From the IMG/VR virus record IMGVR_UViG_2531839454_000024: a stretch of DNA of 10,205 nucleotides; one strand, 5' to 3'. Below the pieces are notes generated by a model. That model worked only from the letters and a program-made list of their open reading frames with translations. It searched no databases and was not told the DNA's origin. The DNA is from a virus (lineage: Duplodnaviria; Heunggongvirae; Uroviricota; Caudoviricetes). Both the position numbers and the translations under genes were made by a program. This document shows positions 2,574 to 10,205 of the stretch, piece by piece; the first letter of the stretch is position 1, and every line of letters begins with the position of its first letter.

Positions 2574-3455
2574 ATGCAGCATTCAACAGAGAATGAAACT
2601 ATATTCTTAGGAAATCTATGGATTGACAAAAAAATACCACCATTAGAATATTGTTCATTTGAACGCGCTTCAAGACTATTAGAATGCGAGATTGATGATT
2701 TATTACACCTATACGAAATAGGCGCTTTTAATATCGCATTCAAGGCGGATGGACTTGCAGTTAGATTTAATGTTAATTTCCTCAATAAAAATCAGAAAGT
2801 GGAAATTGACTTAATTCATCCCGTATTAACTAATCAATCACTAGAGATGGAATTTTCAACAATATGGTATGACCTTAAAGATGATTCCTTTGAACATTTT
2901 GAAAATGGGCTTCAAATTATAGGATTTGCCTGTGGTATTTGGTACGCCGATGATATGATAAGTGACATAAAAAATGGATTAGCTATAGATCCAGATTATG
3001 AATTCAGGCTTAAACCGGTAAAAATACGAGATAATGTTTTGATGGCAACGGCCTCATATGAAGGAAATAAGGTCATTGATATTCCATTTGAAGATCTTCT
3101 TATCATGCGAAGAGATTTAGAGTTAATATGGAAATCAGTAAAAACTGGAATTCCTATGCCAAGTTTACTTACGAAAAGAATTTCATCTGAACCTAAAATC
3201 CCCAAGCGATTAAATAACACTGCTGAGCATCATGCAAAAAATAGGGAGGGGTTATTAAATGCAGCCATATATATATTAGCAAAATACCCAAGCGAATGTC
3301 GTGGTGAAAGAAAAGAGATAAGTCCTGAAAAGTGGACTAACGCCATAATTAAACATTTAGGAGAGCTACCTCCAATATTTATCACTAATGAACAAGAAAT
3401 CTTAAGAAAATTACGATTAGCGGTTAATCATGCGGGATTAAAACAAAAGGGGTAG
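2574..3455 (+). CDS. Hypothetical protein, 293 aa, no family recognised; AT-rich orphan cargo gene
   Basis: Clean ORF with a strong SD 5 nt upstream. Markedly lower G+C than its neighbours (about one third by hand count of four 60-nt samples). No TM helices and no motif I can assign. Confidence 0.8.
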   Translation: MQHSTENETIFLGNLWIDKKIPPLEYCSFERASRLLECEIDDLLHLYEIGAFNIAFKADGLAVRFNVNFLNKNQKVEIDLIHPVLTNQSLEMEFSTIWYDLKDDSFEHFENGLQIIGFACGIWYADDMISDIKNGLAIDPDYEFRLKPVKIRDNVLMATASYEGNKVIDIPFEDLLIMRRDLELIWKSVKTGIPMPSLLTKRISSEPKIPKRLNNTAEHHAKNREGLLNAAIYILAKYPSECRGERKEISPEKWTNAIIKHLGELPPIFITNEQEILRKLRLAVNHAGLKQKG

Positions 3456-4978: not shown

Positions 4979-5358
4979 ACCAGCCGCAGGTTTCCATTTT
5001 CCCGGCAGAAATGACCACCGCGCTTTACCGGCGGGCTATTGCTTCAGCATGGCGGCAGAAAATGCTGAACGAAACTGGTAGTGATCAGTATGGTCCGCAC
5101 AGCCTGACGGTGGAGCGTATTGAAATGGCCATTGCGCTGCATATCGAGTGCGTACTGATTAACGAGTACGGCGAAGTGCAGGGCGCCGCTGCCGCGCTGG
5201 CACTGCTGACTGACATGCTGGAGCCATCACTGCTGACCGCGCCGCCGGTACTGACCGCGCGCGGCTGTGAAGTGATGGCGGAGATGTACCGCACGCTTCC
5301 GGCGGCCTTTGATGACTTCTGCAGTACCGGTGTGACGTTGTATGAGGGGGAAGTATGA
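4975..5358 (+). CDS. Hypothetical protein, 127 aa
   Basis: Translationally coupled on both sides (ATGA overlaps at 4975-4978 and 5355-5358). SD-like GAAGGAGG upstream. Confidence 0.6.
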   Translation: MNQPQVSIFPAEMTTALYRRAIASAWRQKMLNETGSDQYGPHSLTVERIEMAIALHIECVLINEYGEVQGAAAALALLTDMLEPSLLTAPPVLTARGCEVMAEMYRTLPAAFDDFCSTGVTLYEGEV

Positions 5359-8027
5359 CAATACAGACGGTTACGCAGATTTCAGCCGCCGCACGGGGGA
5401 AATGGCCCGTTATTCTGCAGATGCTGCGTATTGATGTACCTGAAAACGGCAGGCACGGCCCCTGCCCGAAATGTGGGGGCAAGGATCGTTTTCGCCTTGA
5501 TGACCTTGACGGGCGCGGGACGTGGATCTGCAGCCAGTGTGGCAATGGTGACGGTCTGGATCTGGTTAAGCTCGTAACCGGTTACAGCGTCAGAAAGGCT
5601 GCGCAGGAGGTGGCGCAGGTGCTTAATGTGCCGGATGTGCAGGAACTGCCTGTTAAGCCTGCCAGACAAAAAGCCCCTAAACGCGACATGGGTCTTACCG
5701 TGGCGGCGCTGATGAAAGAGAGCCACACGGGAGAAAGCGCCTATCTGACAGGAAAAGGGTTCGCCGGATACCCGGCCTCTCTGACCGGAAGCGTGCAGCA
5801 TATCAGCGGTAAGGATTTTCCTGCCGGTTCCCTGCTGTTACCACTCACGACCAACACCGGAGCCGTGACCGGTGCACAGCTTATCGCCCCGACGGGTGAA
5901 AAAAGCATACTGCCCGGCAGCACGATGAAAGGCGCGTTTGTGTCGCTCAGCCCGTTACCGTCTGAACCACCGGTACAGGTGGTGATTACCGAAGGTTACG
6001 CTACGGCGCTGACGGTAAGCCAGCTCACTGCCGGATGCGTAGTGGCTGCCATATCTGCGGGCAACCTGCCCAATGTGGCGCAGTCGCTGCGGGCACGCTG
6101 GCCTGAGGTAAAAATTATCATCGCCGGTGATAACGATTTTCAGGACGGGGGGGAGAATCCCGGCAGAGCCTTTGCTGAACGGGCGGCAAAAGCTGTTGGC
6201 GGCTGGATGACGCTGCCACCAGGAGAGATTAAGGCTGACTGGAATGACTTTCATCGGGAGCACGGTATTACCCGTGCCCGTGAAGCCTTTCGCAACGGTC
6301 TGGTACTGTGCGGGGAAGGCCGCACGCAACTGCCGCACGGGTTCCGTCTTACCCAGGAATATCTCTGGTATGAAAAGCAGGTACAGCGCAACGGTGAGAC
6401 GGAGATCCAGAACGTCAAAATATGCAGCCCGCTGCGCGTGACGGCAATCACCTGCGATGCCGATGGCGGTAACTTCGGACGACTGCTGGAATGGGAAGAT
6501 ACGTGGGGTGAGTGTCGCCGCTGGGCGATGCCGATGGAAATGCTGAGCGGCAGTGGTGAGGAACTGCGCCGGGTACTGCTGGTTAACGGGCTGTCTTATA
6601 TCAGCACCACCGGTGAGGCACGCGCACGCCTGATGGAATATATCTCACTGTGTAAACCGGAACGCCGCGTGACCTGCGTCAGTCGTACTGGCTGGCATGG
6701 TCAGGTTTACGTCCTGCAGGATGAGGTCAGCGGTGAAGGTGCAGAGGGTGTCATTCTCCAGACCACTTCCGTGCAGGGGCGTGATTTCCGCGTGTCGGGC
6801 ACAACAGAGGAATGGCGGGAGCATGTATCCCGCTACTGTACCGGCAACTCCCGCGTGGCATTTGCTGTCAGCCTGGCCTTTGCTGCACCACTGTTACGGC
6901 TGGTTGGTATGGACGGCGGCGGCTACCACCTAAAAGGGGAATCGACAGACGGTAAGACCACCACCATGAAAGCGGCAACCTCCGTCTGCGGCGGGCCTGA
7001 CTACTGGCAGACATGGCGGGCCACCGGCAACGCGCTGGAGGGATGCGCCAGCCGCCGCAACGATGCCGCCATGATGCTTGATGAGATCCGGGAAGTTGAC
7101 GGACGCGAGGCAGGCAATATCGCCTACATGCTGGCAAACGGTCAGGGCAAGGGCCGTGCCGGTACGGACGGTGAGCTGCGTACCCGTAAGCAGTGGCGCC
7201 TGTTGTTCTTTTCAACTGGCGAGTTGTCTCTGACCGAACATGCGGCAAAGGCCGGTGAGCGTACTTTTGCCGGGATGGAAGTCAGGATGATCCAGATCCC
7301 AAGCGATTCCGGGAAGTTTGGCGTTTTTGAGGAGCTGCACGGCTTCGACAGCGGCAAGGCTCTGGCAGAGCATCTTGAATGGGCCACGTCCTGCTACTAC
7401 GGTTCGCCGTTCCGGGAGTGGCTGAAAGCACTGACCGCTGATCTTAACGGACTAACGGCACAGGCAAAATCGCTGATGAAGGAATATGCTGCCGCCCTGA
7501 CTCCTAAAGATGCAGGCAATCAGGTGGGCCGGGCTGTGAACCGCTTTGCACTGGTGGCGATGGCAGGTGAACTGGCAACCCGTCTGGGTATCACCGGCTG
7601 GCCTGAGGGTGAAGCACTGCGGGCAACCCGCGTCTGCCTGAACGCATGGCTGAAAGATCGCGGGCACACCGCCAATCAGGAAGATATCGCCGCACTGGAG
7701 CAGGTTCGCAGTTTCTTTACCGCGAATCAGTACAGCCGCTTTGCAGACTGGTATGACGAGCGCAACCGCCCCGGCAATATGGTGGGCTGGCGCAGGGTGG
7801 AGAAAGGCAGTACCGCGCAGGGCACGGAAGCTGTCACTACGTTCTATGTCATGCCGTCCGGCTGGAAAGAAATCTGCAGGGGATTTGACCCGCGTAAGGT
7901 GGCGCGTCTGTGCGCAGATCGTGGATACCTGCTGCCCTCCACTGATGGCAAACTCCAGACAACCATTCGCCCGCCAGAGATGAATCCCCGCAGGCTCTAT
8001 GTCTTCAACAGCGAGGTGCCGGGTTAA
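5355..8027 (+). CDS. Primase-helicase, P4 alpha-like (zinc-ribbon + TOPRIM + P-loop NTPase, DUF927-type)
   Basis: 890 aa. N-terminal CPKCGG...CSQCG zinc ribbon; TOPRIM-like ITEGYATALTV and IIAGDND; Walker A GESTDGKTT and Walker B-like MMLDEI. Iteron array lies immediately downstream. Confidence 0.9.
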   Translation: MTIQTVTQISAAARGKWPVILQMLRIDVPENGRHGPCPKCGGKDRFRLDDLDGRGTWICSQCGNGDGLDLVKLVTGYSVRKAAQEVAQVLNVPDVQELPVKPARQKAPKRDMGLTVAALMKESHTGESAYLTGKGFAGYPASLTGSVQHISGKDFPAGSLLLPLTTNTGAVTGAQLIAPTGEKSILPGSTMKGAFVSLSPLPSEPPVQVVITEGYATALTVSQLTAGCVVAAISAGNLPNVAQSLRARWPEVKIIIAGDNDFQDGGENPGRAFAERAAKAVGGWMTLPPGEIKADWNDFHREHGITRAREAFRNGLVLCGEGRTQLPHGFRLTQEYLWYEKQVQRNGETEIQNVKICSPLRVTAITCDADGGNFGRLLEWEDTWGECRRWAMPMEMLSGSGEELRRVLLVNGLSYISTTGEARARLMEYISLCKPERRVTCVSRTGWHGQVYVLQDEVSGEGAEGVILQTTSVQGRDFRVSGTTEEWREHVSRYCTGNSRVAFAVSLAFAAPLLRLVGMDGGGYHLKGESTDGKTTTMKAATSVCGGPDYWQTWRATGNALEGCASRRNDAAMMLDEIREVDGREAGNIAYMLANGQGKGRAGTDGELRTRKQWRLLFFSTGELSLTEHAAKAGERTFAGMEVRMIQIPSDSGKFGVFEELHGFDSGKALAEHLEWATSCYYGSPFREWLKALTADLNGLTAQAKSLMKEYAAALTPKDAGNQVGRAVNRFALVAMAGELATRLGITGWPEGEALRATRVCLNAWLKDRGHTANQEDIAALEQVRSFFTANQYSRFADWYDERNRPGNMVGWRRVEKGSTAQGTEAVTTFYVMPSGWKEICRGFDPRKVARLCADRGYLLPSTDGKLQTTIRPPEMNPRRLYVFNSEVPG

Positions 8028-8061
8028 GGCTTTGCGTGAGTCTTATTTATTAAGGGTAACA

Positions 8062-8249
8062 GGTGAAACAGGTGGAACAACCGTATTTTACAGGGCTGAA
8101 CCTGTTCCACCTTCTGAAATAGTGAGGTGGAACAGATGTAACGCCAGCCAATCCGCTGTTCCACCTTGTTACCCGCGATGTTCCACCGGTGCAGTGTATA
8201 TAAATGCTTTATAAAACAAAGCAGTAACACATGTTTCACCTGTTCCACC
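8062..8249. repeat. Iteron array, probable satellite replication origin
   Basis: Eight copies of the 9-mer TGTT(C/T)CACC. Plus orientation at 8103-8111, 8157-8165, 8179-8187, 8232-8240, 8241-8249; minus orientation at 8062-8070, 8071-8079, 8126-8134. Tandem pairs at both ends in opposite orientation. AT-rich stretch 8194-8231 sits between clusters. Confidence 0.6.
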
Positions 8250-8337
8250 GCATCAGGGACATAAAGCAGACTGAAACAGAGGGTATTTTTATCTGGCTGG
8301 CTTTCATAGCCACGTCTGAATAACCGCAAGCGTCCGT

Positions 8338-8393
8338 TGTGCCAGCCACCACACACTGAGCACCGATAGTGTGCTTGTGTCAGCCACGACACA
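8338..8393 (+). promoter_or_regulatory. Psid-like late promoter with two Ogr/Delta-type TGT-N12-ACA dyads
   Basis: TGT-N12-ACA at 8338-8355 and again at 8376-8393, centres 38 bp apart. ATG 8428 with SD AGGAG 8418-8422. Spacing is compatible with activator sites near -55 and -18 relative to a start around 8400. Confidence 0.5.
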
Positions 8394-8427
8394 ATTGACG
8401 TAACGAACCAACCCGACAGGAGAAGTC

Positions 8428-9171
8428 ATGAACAACACCGCAGTGAATAACAACCTTTCCACTTTTCCGGCTGTAACGCAGCGGGCACTGGAAACCATGA
8501 ACACAGCCAGAAACGCATGGCTTGAAGCACGTCGTCAGCAGAAAGCGGCAGCGGATAATATTGCGACAATCCGCCAGCGTCGCGCTGAAATGGAAGCCAC
8601 GACGAACACACTGAATGAGGAGTGGCGCACGCTGTTTCGTGAAAGTCAGGGCGTGGTCTCAAAGGAAATGAAAAAACTGCGCACGGAAATTGCGCTGGGA
8701 CGAGAAACGCTTGAGGATTTTGATGAGCTGCTGGCGGCTCAGGAAAGCGAAAATGCACTTTTGCCGCAGAAAGCTGCGGAATTAGCCGGAAAGTATATCC
8801 ACGCGCATAACATTCTTGTGGATATTCGCGCAAAACAAATCTGGGAAGATTTTATGCAGTCGCATGGAAAAGCGCTTATTCAGACGCTGAGCCTGCTTAA
8901 ATCCACAATGGGCCGGGAAGCCAGTGCCGTTGTGGGTGTGGTGAATTCAGTTAATGACCCGGACACAGTGCTGAAAGACTTTATTCATAAACATATCACC
9001 AGACCGGCTCTGGCTAACGATGCGATGCCTGAACAGGACCCGGTGTTTAAACTGGCGGGAGTTGCCCCGGATTATGCGGCGCGTCTGGATTTCAGTAATC
9101 AACTCTCTCCGGCAGCTATGCATAAAATAAAGGTTCGTCAGGAACTTGCTGAGAAGGAGAAAGCTGTATGA
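8428..9171 (+). CDS. Sid/Psu-family protein, probable capsid size determination (Sid-like) protein
   Basis: 247 aa (P4 Sid is about 244 aa). Helical, A/E/K/R/Q-rich. Contains WEDFMQSHGKAL, the same motif class as the next gene's SNFMQANGAAL. Sits behind the late promoter. Confidence 0.45.
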   Translation: MNNTAVNNNLSTFPAVTQRALETMNTARNAWLEARRQQKAAADNIATIRQRRAEMEATTNTLNEEWRTLFRESQGVVSKEMKKLRTEIALGRETLEDFDELLAAQESENALLPQKAAELAGKYIHAHNILVDIRAKQIWEDFMQSHGKALIQTLSLLKSTMGREASAVVGVVNSVNDPDTVLKDFIHKHITRPALANDAMPEQDPVFKLAGVAPDYAARLDFSNQLSPAAMHKIKVRQELAEKEKAV

Positions 9172-9719
9172 CGGCCCGAGGCACACCTGACCAGGCACTT
9201 ACCAGTTTTCGGAATGCCCGTATTCTGTGGGCCGGACATAGTGAGACCCGAAAAGCCGTTGAACAACAGATAGCATCTCTCCTCGCTGCCACAGAAAAAC
9301 CAACAGATTATGCCCGACAGCTCGAATTACTGCGGGAACGTCTGGATGTGCTGAAATGGCAAATTAACTGTGCTGCTCGCGAATGCATTTACTCGCAGCA
9401 TTTATTGATGGAGGCCTGCACTGAAGCTGCTCTCAGCAATTTTATGCAGGCGAATGGGGCAGCCCTGACATCTGCACTGGCTCCGTTCCTGAAGGGGCGC
9501 GGAGGGGTTGACGTTGCGTCCCGTATATTACGCAGTGCTCTGGTTCGCCAGCTGGCAATAACACCGCCTGAAATTGCCGGGGATTATCGTGAGATCCTGG
9601 ATGAATCCGGTTTGATGCCAGACCCCGGGATGATTCGTGATTGCCAGGGCTCTTACACCCCGGCACAACATCTGCGTTTTCAGCAACGCCTGAATGACAT
9701 TAACGATATACAGGAGTGA
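9168..9719 (+). CDS. psu: Psu-like polarity suppression protein
   Basis: 183 aa (P4 Psu is about 190 aa). Motifs KWQINCAARECI, FMQANGAALTSALAP and YTPAQ match my recollection of P4 Psu. Start ATGA overlaps the upstream stop. Followed by an Ogr/Delta-like gene. Confidence 0.6.
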   Translation: MTARGTPDQALTSFRNARILWAGHSETRKAVEQQIASLLAATEKPTDYARQLELLRERLDVLKWQINCAARECIYSQHLLMEACTEAALSNFMQANGAALTSALAPFLKGRGGVDVASRILRSALVRQLAITPPEIAGDYREILDESGLMPDPGMIRDCQGSYTPAQHLRFQQRLNDINDIQE

Positions 9720-9724
9720 TATTA

Positions 9725-9848
9725 ATGGCACTTAAATGTCCGGAATGCGGTACAGTTGCACACGCCAGAACAGCAGCCTATGAAGCTCCGTCAGTTAAAC
9801 GCTCGTGGTATCAGTGCCAGAATCTGGAATGTTCCTGCACATTTACGG
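9725..9848 (+). pseudogene. Ogr/Delta-like zinc-finger late-gene activator, truncated by IS66-family insertion
   Basis: MALKCPECGTVAHARTAAYEAPSVKRSWYQCQNLECSCTF aligns to the P2 Ogr pattern C-x2-C...HARTS...QCQN..C. Homology stops near codon 42, where the IS end GTAAGCG begins (9849). SD CAGGAG 9711-9716. Confidence 0.7.
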
Positions 9849-10205
9849 GTAAGCGACTCGTCAGAACCGTATTGATATTTACTGAGAGCTCAGATCAACT
9901 TTCCAGGGCAACAGATCGCGTACCCGGTTTGCCGGCCAATCCTGGATATGTTCAATGACGTAACGCAGCCACTTTTCTGGCTCCACATTGTTCAGACGGC
10001 ATGTGCCGATCAGCGAGTACAACACCGCCGCATGTTCACCACCGCTGTCGGAACCCGCGAACATCCAGTTTTTCCGGCCTACGGCCACTCCCCGTAAGGC
10101 GTTCTCTGCGATGTTGTTGTCGATTTCCACCCAGCCATTACTGCAGTACACGTTCAGTGCATCCCACTGTTTCAGCAGGTATGCGAACGCTTTTGCCGTA
10201 TCTGA
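9849..10205 (-). mobile_element. IS66-family insertion sequence, right-hand end only (continues past window edge)
   Basis: Terminus begins GTAAGCG at 9849-9855, typical of IS66-family ends. Carries the C-terminal part of an IS66-type transposase on the minus strand. Confidence 0.8.
9879..10205 (-). CDS. IS66-family transposase (TnpC), C-terminal fragment, 5' end outside window
   Basis: Minus-strand frame is open to the window edge. Translation ...AFAYLLKQWDALNVYCSNGWVEIDNNIAENALRGVAVGRKNWMFAGSDSGGEHAAVLYSLIGTCRLNNVEPEKWLRYVIEHIQDW... is the conserved IS66 transposase C-terminus. Stop TAA at 9879-9881. Confidence 0.85.
   Translation of the reverse strand, partial: SDTAKAFAYLLKQWDALNVYCSNGWVEIDNNIAENALRGVAVGRKNWMFAGSDSGGEHAAVLYSLIGTCRLNNVEPEKWLRYVIEHIQDWPANRVRDLLPWKVDLSSQ

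Follow-up and report, generated by a model that had tools for sequence, protein, structure and literature searches.

A large share of the Enterobacterales carries P4-like satellites, which are also being engineered as delivery vehicles, yet how they replicate has been described for P4 itself only, in terms of the alpha protein, ori and crr. In work attributed to Ziegelin and colleagues in 1993 and to Yeo and colleagues in 2002, alpha is said to bind the type 1 repeats via its C-terminal domain. For its replication P4 requires alpha together with the cognate ori (PMC6092414). In the annotated P4 record NC_001609, our source for where ori, crr and the type 1 repeats lie, crr is located just after alpha and ori approximately 170-180 bp upstream of sid, the two sites being 4.5 kb apart.

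In SaPIs, Rep is both initiator and self-loading helicase, and its C-terminal winged helix recognises the iterons; the SaPI ori consists of six to twelve iterons directly 3' of rep, around an AT-rich region (PMC9371898). SaPI specificity differs between elements, and in SaPI5 the pri and rep genes are fused (PriRep5) (PMC9371898). The ori of E. coli PICIs, with iterons around an AT-rich region, is located directly 3' of pri-rep, and its function has been shown for EcCICFT073 (PMC6092414). The surveys of P4-like satellites that were consulted contain no discussion of origins, iterons or a DUF927 initiator variant, and no experimental work on the DUF927-type primase/initiator family was found in the literature. 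A literature search with the octamer string returned primer matches only.

The window, by which we mean the whole stretch of 10,205 nucleotides analysed here, is 99.97% identical to part of the chromosome of E. coli ATCC 43896. It carries a P4-like satellite integrated at tRNA-Arg(CCU), beside yfdC. Pfam, PHROG and RefSeq annotation shows the core genes of such a satellite (int, alpA-like, primase, sid, psu and delta), and a late promoter of the Delta/Ogr type is present as well; no epsilon/ash homologue was identified in the element. The genes to which we refer below are as follows.

1209-2543: integrase gene, first in the order of the element
2574-3455: ORF of 293 aa directly after the integrase gene, hypothetical in RefSeq
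5355..8027, plus strand: primase/initiator-helicase gene, 890 aa (Pfam Zn_Ribbon_Prim, Toprim_3, DUF927)
7890..8024, plus strand: codons 846-890 of that gene, second helix and beta-hairpin (wing) of the winged helix
8428-9171: Sid-like gene, after the iteron array
9168-9719: Psu gene, after the Sid-like gene
~9716-10205 (15826-18805 in L001, the 28.5-kb locus spanning the whole element): Ogr/Delta-like gene, cut by an IS66-family element

For the 293-aa ORF, Pfam, PADLOC and PHROGs give no match. Next come genes for an AlpA-like HTH protein, an Icd-like protein and a DUF5375 protein (P4 orf106 family), and then the primase gene, the array and sid. The IS66-family element (ISCro1-like) lies inside the Ogr/Delta-like gene and extends from about 9879 to the end of the window. 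The late genes of this copy are therefore probably not self-activated, and since delta is disrupted, the origin may no longer be used in the host strain. The intergenic region that holds the array is present in 337 of 5426 complete E. coli genomes (about 6%).

Between the array and sid there are two TGT-N12-ACA dyads, at 8338-8355 and 8376-8393, 38 bp apart. Both contain CAGCCAC, and they are followed by CACAATT and an RBS before the sid ATG at 8428. They align with the two dyads of the P4 sid promoter region (L002, 9494-9511 and 9531-9548), and by this likeness the pair at 8338-8393 is identified as a P4 Psid-type, Delta/Ogr-activated late promoter.

The first-pass annotation described eight copies of TGTT(C/T)CACC immediately downstream of the primase gene. 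An exact search of the whole window for TGTTYCACC does return eight matches, all within 8062-8249, where 0.19 would be expected by chance; none of 200 dinucleotide-preserving shuffles reaches eight. The window has no exact match outside 8062-8249, and with one mismatch the motif occurs elsewhere only as isolated singles. The array starts 26 nt past the primase stop (8027) and is made up as follows.

8053..8249, no strand: whole iteron array, proposed ori, with eight exact and three degenerate 9-bp sites and an AT-rich segment
8053..8061, minus strand: degenerate iteron TGTTACCCT, opening a tandem triplet at 9-bp spacing with 8062 and 8071
8062..8070, minus strand: iteron TGTTTCACC, from the exact search
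8071..8079, minus strand: iteron TGTTCCACC, from the exact search
8103..8111, plus strand: iteron TGTTCCACC, from the exact search
8126..8134, minus strand: iteron TGTTCCACC, from the exact search
8157..8165, plus strand: iteron TGTTCCACC, from the exact search
8167..8175, plus strand: degenerate iteron TGTTACCCG
8179..8187, plus strand: iteron TGTTCCACC, from the exact search
8194..8227, no strand: AT-rich segment, proposed DNA-unwinding element
8221..8229, minus strand: degenerate iteron TGTTACTGC, at the edge of the AT-rich segment
8232..8240, plus strand: iteron TGTTTCACC, from the exact search
8241..8249, plus strand: iteron TGTTCCACC, from the exact search

The three degenerate iterons keep both the family core TGTTNC and the register of the exact copies, and the third tandem position, equivalent to 8053-8061, is occupied by a full iteron copy in other loci. 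Two of them bear on a flanking inverted repeat GGGTAAC/GTTACCC that had been annotated previously. This repeat exists, with its first arm at 8054-8060 and not at 8055-8061, and its arms are better read as the degenerate iterons TGTTACCCT and TGTTACCCG, in register with their neighbours. The inverted pair at 8103 and 8126 is as described. The tandem pairs at the two ends have the positions given before and are in opposite orientation, but their description as inward-facing depends on how the arrow is drawn: with an arrow from 5'-TGTT to ACC-3' they point outward. The AT-rich segment is real, with 80-85% AT in 20-nt windows at 8198-8227. It is off-centre in the array, with iterons on both sides. 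The strong copies nearest to it (8179-8187 and 8232-8249) have the same orientation, and the opposed sets are the outer ones, 8053-8079 against 8232-8249. As single-stranded DNA the array region has a strong hairpin potential (z = -6.4), which is an expected by-product of the inverted repeats.

The array occupies a non-coding stretch that separates the stop of the primase gene from the late promoter for sid. Two ORFs overlap it in the window, of 71 aa (plus strand) and 122 aa (minus strand), but no reading frame is conserved across it: even relatives that are 98% identical do not conserve these ORFs, and in other loci almost every frame across the array is broken by stops. The repeats are thus not inside a conserved coding frame; a position within one had been named at the outset as speaking against an origin. 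RefSeq has no gene annotated in this intergenic region, Rfam gives no match in the array (a tRNA is the only known RNA family found), the window contains no DnaA box, and a consensus scan of 7950-8480 finds neither a sigma-70 promoter nor an intrinsic terminator. It is worth adding that no intrinsic terminator is predicted at 8028-8052, between the primase stop and the array, where P4 has t-alpha between alpha and crr. Transcription of the primase operon may run into the origin.

The 890-aa protein encoded upstream of the array is a mosaic, consisting of a P4 alpha-like primase half and a SaPI-Rep-like initiator half. Residues 1-316 contain a Zn-ribbon (C37-C62) and a Toprim domain (E213, D259xD261) and share 38% identity with the P4 alpha primase half. 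They are followed by DUF927 at residues ~330-645 (Pfam E 2e-90), with its ATPase motifs Walker A (528-535, GESTDGKT) and Walker B (574-577, MLDE), and at the C-terminal end by a helical bundle and a winged helix. The primase catalytic motifs and the ATPase motifs are intact. The protein is therefore a DUF927/Rep-type helicase with intact ATPase motifs, for which hexamer formation is predicted. In phmmer and profile searches, residues 411-647 hit SaPIbov1 Rep (8TCH, E 4e-17) as well as Cch (5DGK), the helicase of SCCmec, and the helicase core and C-terminal domain have fold homology to both. This architecture is already catalogued: phrog_1139 matches the full length of the protein, and the NCBI name is 'TOPRIM and DUF927 domain-containing protein'.

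The resemblance to P4 alpha does not extend to the second half. BLASTP, phmmer, profile search and hhalign found nothing in the protein that is similar to the P4 origin-binding domain, and that domain is absent from the top fold matches of the C-terminal domain. A hairpin strand in the tail, KLQTTIRPPE (residues 866-875, nt 7950-7979), resembles GIQTNLTLKE in the origin-binding domain of P4 alpha; it is the sole stretch that hhalign aligns between the two tails, with a probability of 0.1% and no statistical support. The P4 type I octamer TGTTCACC has no copy in the array and a single stray copy in the window, at 10033, and all sampled alpha-type relatives keep it. These relatives come from viral contigs and are 84-99% identical to P4, which is too close for a deep profile. 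At the DNA level, P4 ori and crr align convincingly with the array only in the iterons and the late-promoter part. The DNA-recognition part of the system in the window, judged by architecture, octamer and the number of cis sites, is accordingly classed as not of the P4 alpha type. The first-pass annotation had placed DNA recognition in the frame of P4 alpha, which fits the N-terminal primase half only. Since the origin-binding part is unrelated to that of P4 alpha, the resemblance between TGTTCCACC and TGTTCACC is not explained by homology of the initiators.

Relatives were sought by scanning one genome per species, which gave 55 loci with 58-100% identity from more than 20 enterobacterial genera. 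Fifty of these have enough sequence 3' of the primase for a de novo repeat analysis. An array of 6-13 copies starting approximately 25 nt past the primase stop is present in 45 of the 50 (45 of the 49 that can be assessed; L036 ends too early). In L039, L047 and L056, from Klebsiella spallanzanii, Scandinavium and Apirhabdus, the array lies 1.2 kb downstream of the primase and consists of 9-10 copies of TGTTCCCAC; these three loci had at first been scored as iteron-free. In L039 the gap is filled by a 335-aa tyrosine-recombinase gene (6649-7656), which overlaps the primase stop. With a recombinase gene between primase and array in three loci (the ORF was checked in L039 only), adjacency is not obligatory. 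The locus L054, a degenerate symbiont copy, is without an array.

The layout of the array is conserved. Counting from the primase stop, there is a tandem at approximately +25 to +45, an opposed copy at about +78, and a tandem at about +100; further out there are opposed copies at approximately +130 to +160, an AT-rich part at about +160 to +190, and a final tandem at about +190 to +220. The most AT-rich 30-mer is found at +155 to +186 in most loci, and at +170 in the window. The repeat unit itself differs. At least nine classes can be recognised, all with TGT at the 5' end: TGTTCCACC, TGTTACACC, TGTTACCCC, TGTTACCAGT, TGTTACCAC, TGTAACCGC, TGTATCCAC, TGTAGTACA and TGTTCCCAC. It had been suggested earlier that a 9-mer marks a distinct specificity group; the window holds one of these classes, the initiator belongs to a different family, and the repeat is not a 9-mer variant within the P4 group.

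Several individual loci deserve mention. L050 and L051 encode relatives of ~690 aa whose match to the window protein does not begin until residue ~324, the N-terminus being different. Both retain the tail, with an array of TGTTACACC in L050 and of TGTTCCACC in L051. That tail and arrays are kept with another N-terminus implies that the two halves of the protein, primase and initiator, move independently of each other. The primase of L030 (Pectobacterium carotovorum) has an in-frame deletion of 33 residues (window residues 394-426, in DUF927) relative to the 98%-identical L019. A Pantoea protein of the L006 type, 91% identical to the window protein, goes with TGTTACACC iterons. L017, a locus typical of the Enterobacterales, comes from an assembly that bears the name of a Firmicute, Vagococcus sp., probably through contamination or mislabelling.

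The relationship between iteron class and protein sequence was analysed using pairs of primases that are 95-98% identical and have different iterons, with close pairs sharing the same iteron as control. Residues 846-890 make up 5% of the protein, and contain 29 of the 196 amino acid differences in different-class pairs as against 6 of the 268 in same-class pairs (odds ratio 7.6, Fisher p=4e-7). All 20 loci whose iterons are of the type TGTT[A/C]C[A/C]C encode K866, and all 26 loci of other classes encode R866, a split that holds even for the 96%-identical Xenorhabdus pair L023/L024. In a Proteus pair, L025 and L028, the arrays align without gaps and nearly every copy is changed from TGTTACACC to TGTTACCCN (A7 to C); the change is accompanied by T867P in the hairpin. 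We propose that codons 846-890, and especially residues 861-871 and 878, are the determinant of iteron specificity. The code may be partly readable, in that the choice between K866 and R866 follows the 3' half of the iteron, while A7 to C goes with T867P. It is not simple, because no single alignment column separates the TGTTCCACC from the TGTTACACC lineages once the divergent L050 and L051 are included.

The DNA comparison gives a similar picture. In different-class pairs, divergence is confined to about -150 to +250 of the stop, with 95-99% identity on either side, whereas same-class pairs are best conserved within this block. The tail patch (aa 846-872) and the array are separated by ~80 nt of less-diverged sequence in three of the four pairs. 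Same-class pairs have mostly synonymous changes in the patch (2 amino acid changes per 19 nucleotide changes), and replacements are more frequent in pairs of different class (19 per 52; p = 0.04). Within a class, changes number 2/252 in iterons and 33/457 in spacers (p=4e-5), and between the window and L003 the corresponding figures are 0/81 and 19/156. Between classes the iteron copies switch in concert. The Proteus pair had suggested that spacers are conserved between classes; this is not general, as the whole array diverges by 20-40% between classes. Because the covarying codons adjoin the array, co-transfer by recombination contributes to the correlation, and linkage and functional coupling cannot be fully separated as its causes.

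On the basis of these observations we consider it very probable that 8053-8249 is the vegetative origin of the P4-like satellite, and that the 890-aa protein encoded upstream is a fused primase/initiator-helicase of a 'PriRep' type. The first-pass annotation had proposed an origin recognised by the upstream primase-helicase, and four independent computational lines support this: conservation of the array in more than 20 genera, covariation of iteron class and tail, homology to SaPI Rep, and the lack of a conserved reading frame. The initiator has a C-terminal winged helix, and the iterons, eight exact and three degenerate, lie directly downstream of its ORF, as in SaPI/PICI elements. It is this fit to the published SaPI/PICI design that leads us to read the array as an origin and the upstream gene as its initiator. 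The system in the window is best read as a SaPI/PICI-type module of 'Rep plus ori immediately downstream', carried by a P4-like satellite that has one array and lacks crr.

By analogy, initiation might proceed as follows. The C-terminal winged helix would bind the 9-bp iterons, reading them with the helix at ~846-856 and the hairpin at ~861-878. The oppositely oriented tandem sets at the two ends would position hexamers of the DUF927 ATPase, and the AT-rich segment 8194-8227 would then melt. The helicase would be self-loading, with no separate loader, as has been described for the Reps of SaPIs, and the N-terminal Zn-ribbon/Toprim domain would lay primers for the host polymerase. For the 890-aa protein, we infer iteron binding, melting, self-loading and priming.

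The array could instead be an auxiliary cis site bound by the primase, such as a crr-like enhancer or a 'handcuffing' site for copy number or incompatibility, with the true start elsewhere. In the annotated P4 record, the site directly downstream of alpha is indeed crr and not ori, plasmid iteron arrays serve in copy control as well, and the AT-rich segment of the array is off-centre. We nevertheless regard this as improbable. An initiator needs cognate sites at the start, yet the second, crr-like iteron cluster that the first-pass annotation had suggested looking for is found neither in the window nor in the 28.5 kb of L001. In addition, the array has a conserved AT-rich segment of its own, and where SaPIs and E. 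coli PICIs have an array 3' of rep, it is this array that serves as ori (PMC9371898, PMC6092414).

Another explanation is that the repeats are operators for the late promoter or for read-through from the primase operon, bound by AlpA or another HTH protein, Delta or a helper protein, and have no role in replication. The array is 90 bp upstream of the late promoter with its two dyads, and a terminator is not predicted between it and the primase gene. However, iteron class follows the primase tail and not other genes, and over the 4 kb upstream, close pairs with different iterons show no dip common to all pairs that is comparable to the block of tail plus array. Eleven sites over 200 bp with an internal AT-rich block resemble an origin rather than an operator, Delta/Ogr sites are a different motif and are separately present, and in L039-type loci the array is not beside sid-like genes. 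We therefore think this explanation very unlikely. Least credible of all is that the repeats have no sequence-specific function (a recombination-prone tract or an unannotated gene) and that the tail covariation is pure hitchhiking, since, although the covarying codons are within 150 nt of the array and the 71-aa and 122-aa ORFs overlap it, those ORFs are neither conserved in 98%-identical relatives nor matched by a RefSeq gene, within a class the iteron bases are under more constraint than the spacers, from one class to another all copies change together, and the layout is kept across more than 20 genera.

Returning to the array as an origin, we put forward tentatively that the last ~45 codons and the array may form a compact exchangeable specificity cassette, with at least nine classes in the Enterobacterales and a partly readable recognition code. 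Three genomes carry two complete loci, namely those of Pantoea stewartii, Pantoea leporis and Enterobacter intestinihominis (L004/L046, L013/L052 and L012/L042), and in each of them the two copies have different iteron classes. This is compatible with avoidance of incompatibility, n=3 being too few for a test. As all three two-copy genomes carry different classes, diversification of the classes may have been driven by avoidance of cross-replication or incompatibility between satellites sharing a cell. More speculatively, initiators of enterobacterial satellites with unrelated DNA-binding domains could have converged on TGT...ACC-type iterons. Iterons of this type go with the Pox_D5 domain of P4 alpha (TGTTCACC), with EcCICFT073 (TGTCTACC) and with the DUF927 tail (TGTTCCACC), and are alike although the DNA-binding domains of the three are not detectably related.

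The principle of an initiator, iterons, an AT-rich segment and an origin adjacent to the gene is already established, and no new principle is seen here. What is indicated is a widespread subgroup of P4-like satellites that has a different initiator half, SaPI-Rep-like wiring and one origin directly after the gene. The most useful by-product is the series of specificity cassettes. Initiators that are nearly identical and have different iterons make up a natural mutant series for how a Rep-type winged helix reads DNA, and could serve to predict cross-replication of co-resident satellites.

The closest known systems can now be compared. The element shares with P4 the genes for integrase, AlpA-like HTH, DUF5375 protein, primase, Sid, Psu and Delta, the two-dyad late promoter, and a similar iteron. 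The helicase and origin-binding half of P4 alpha is D5_N + DUF5906 + Pox_D5, whereas that of the window protein is DUF927 with a SaPI-Rep-like C-terminal domain. P4 has ori and crr, while the element has one array, which occupies both P4 positions, just after the primase gene as crr does and upstream of sid as ori does; gene order and orientation relative to sid also differ. The element is unlike iteron plasmids with a RepA/Rep_3 origin (dimeric winged-helix initiator of the Rep_3 type, DnaA boxes, loading of host DnaB): no Rep_3 domain was found by Pfam in any ORF tested, and DnaA boxes are absent from the window.

The SaPI Rep-ori systems (SaPIbov1 Rep, SaPI1 Rep1 and PriRep5) have a DUF927 core and a C-terminal domain homologous to those of the window protein, with 9-14% identity to SaPI Rep over the C-terminal domain. 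Like SaPIs, the element has iterons directly 3' of the gene and an AT-rich segment, and like PriRep5 of SaPI5 its protein is a fusion of primase and initiator. In the SaPI/PICI design the AT-rich region has on each side two or more iterons, the two sets pointing in opposite directions; oppositely oriented sets are present in the window too, as the outer ones. It differs in that its iterons are 9 bp and not penta- or hexanucleotides, in that the AT-rich segment is off-centre and immediately flanked by iterons of the same orientation where the SaPI ori is described as symmetric, in its primase half of the Zn-ribbon/Toprim type shared with P4 alpha, and in its Gram-negative host and P4-type sid/psu/delta hijacking genes. 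Cch has a homologous DUF927 ATPase core and C-terminal domain, and belongs to a staphylococcal cassette chromosome and not to a phage satellite.

EcCICFT073 (L139 10242-12240, E. coli CFT073) is likewise an E. coli satellite with unidirectional int-alpA-replication genes, an ori 3' of the initiator gene, and iterons of the TGT...ACC form, about ten copies of (C)TGTCTACC within 250 bp of the Pri-Rep stop. It is, however, a lambdoid-helper PICI with capsid genes and not a sid/psu/delta element, and its Pri-Rep, which is D5_N + DUF5906 + Pox_D5 without a Toprim half, is of the P4 alpha helicase type and unrelated to the DUF927 half of the window protein. The element in the window thus represents a third combination, in which a P4 alpha primase half is joined to a SaPI-Rep-type initiator half in the company of P4-like helper-exploitation genes.
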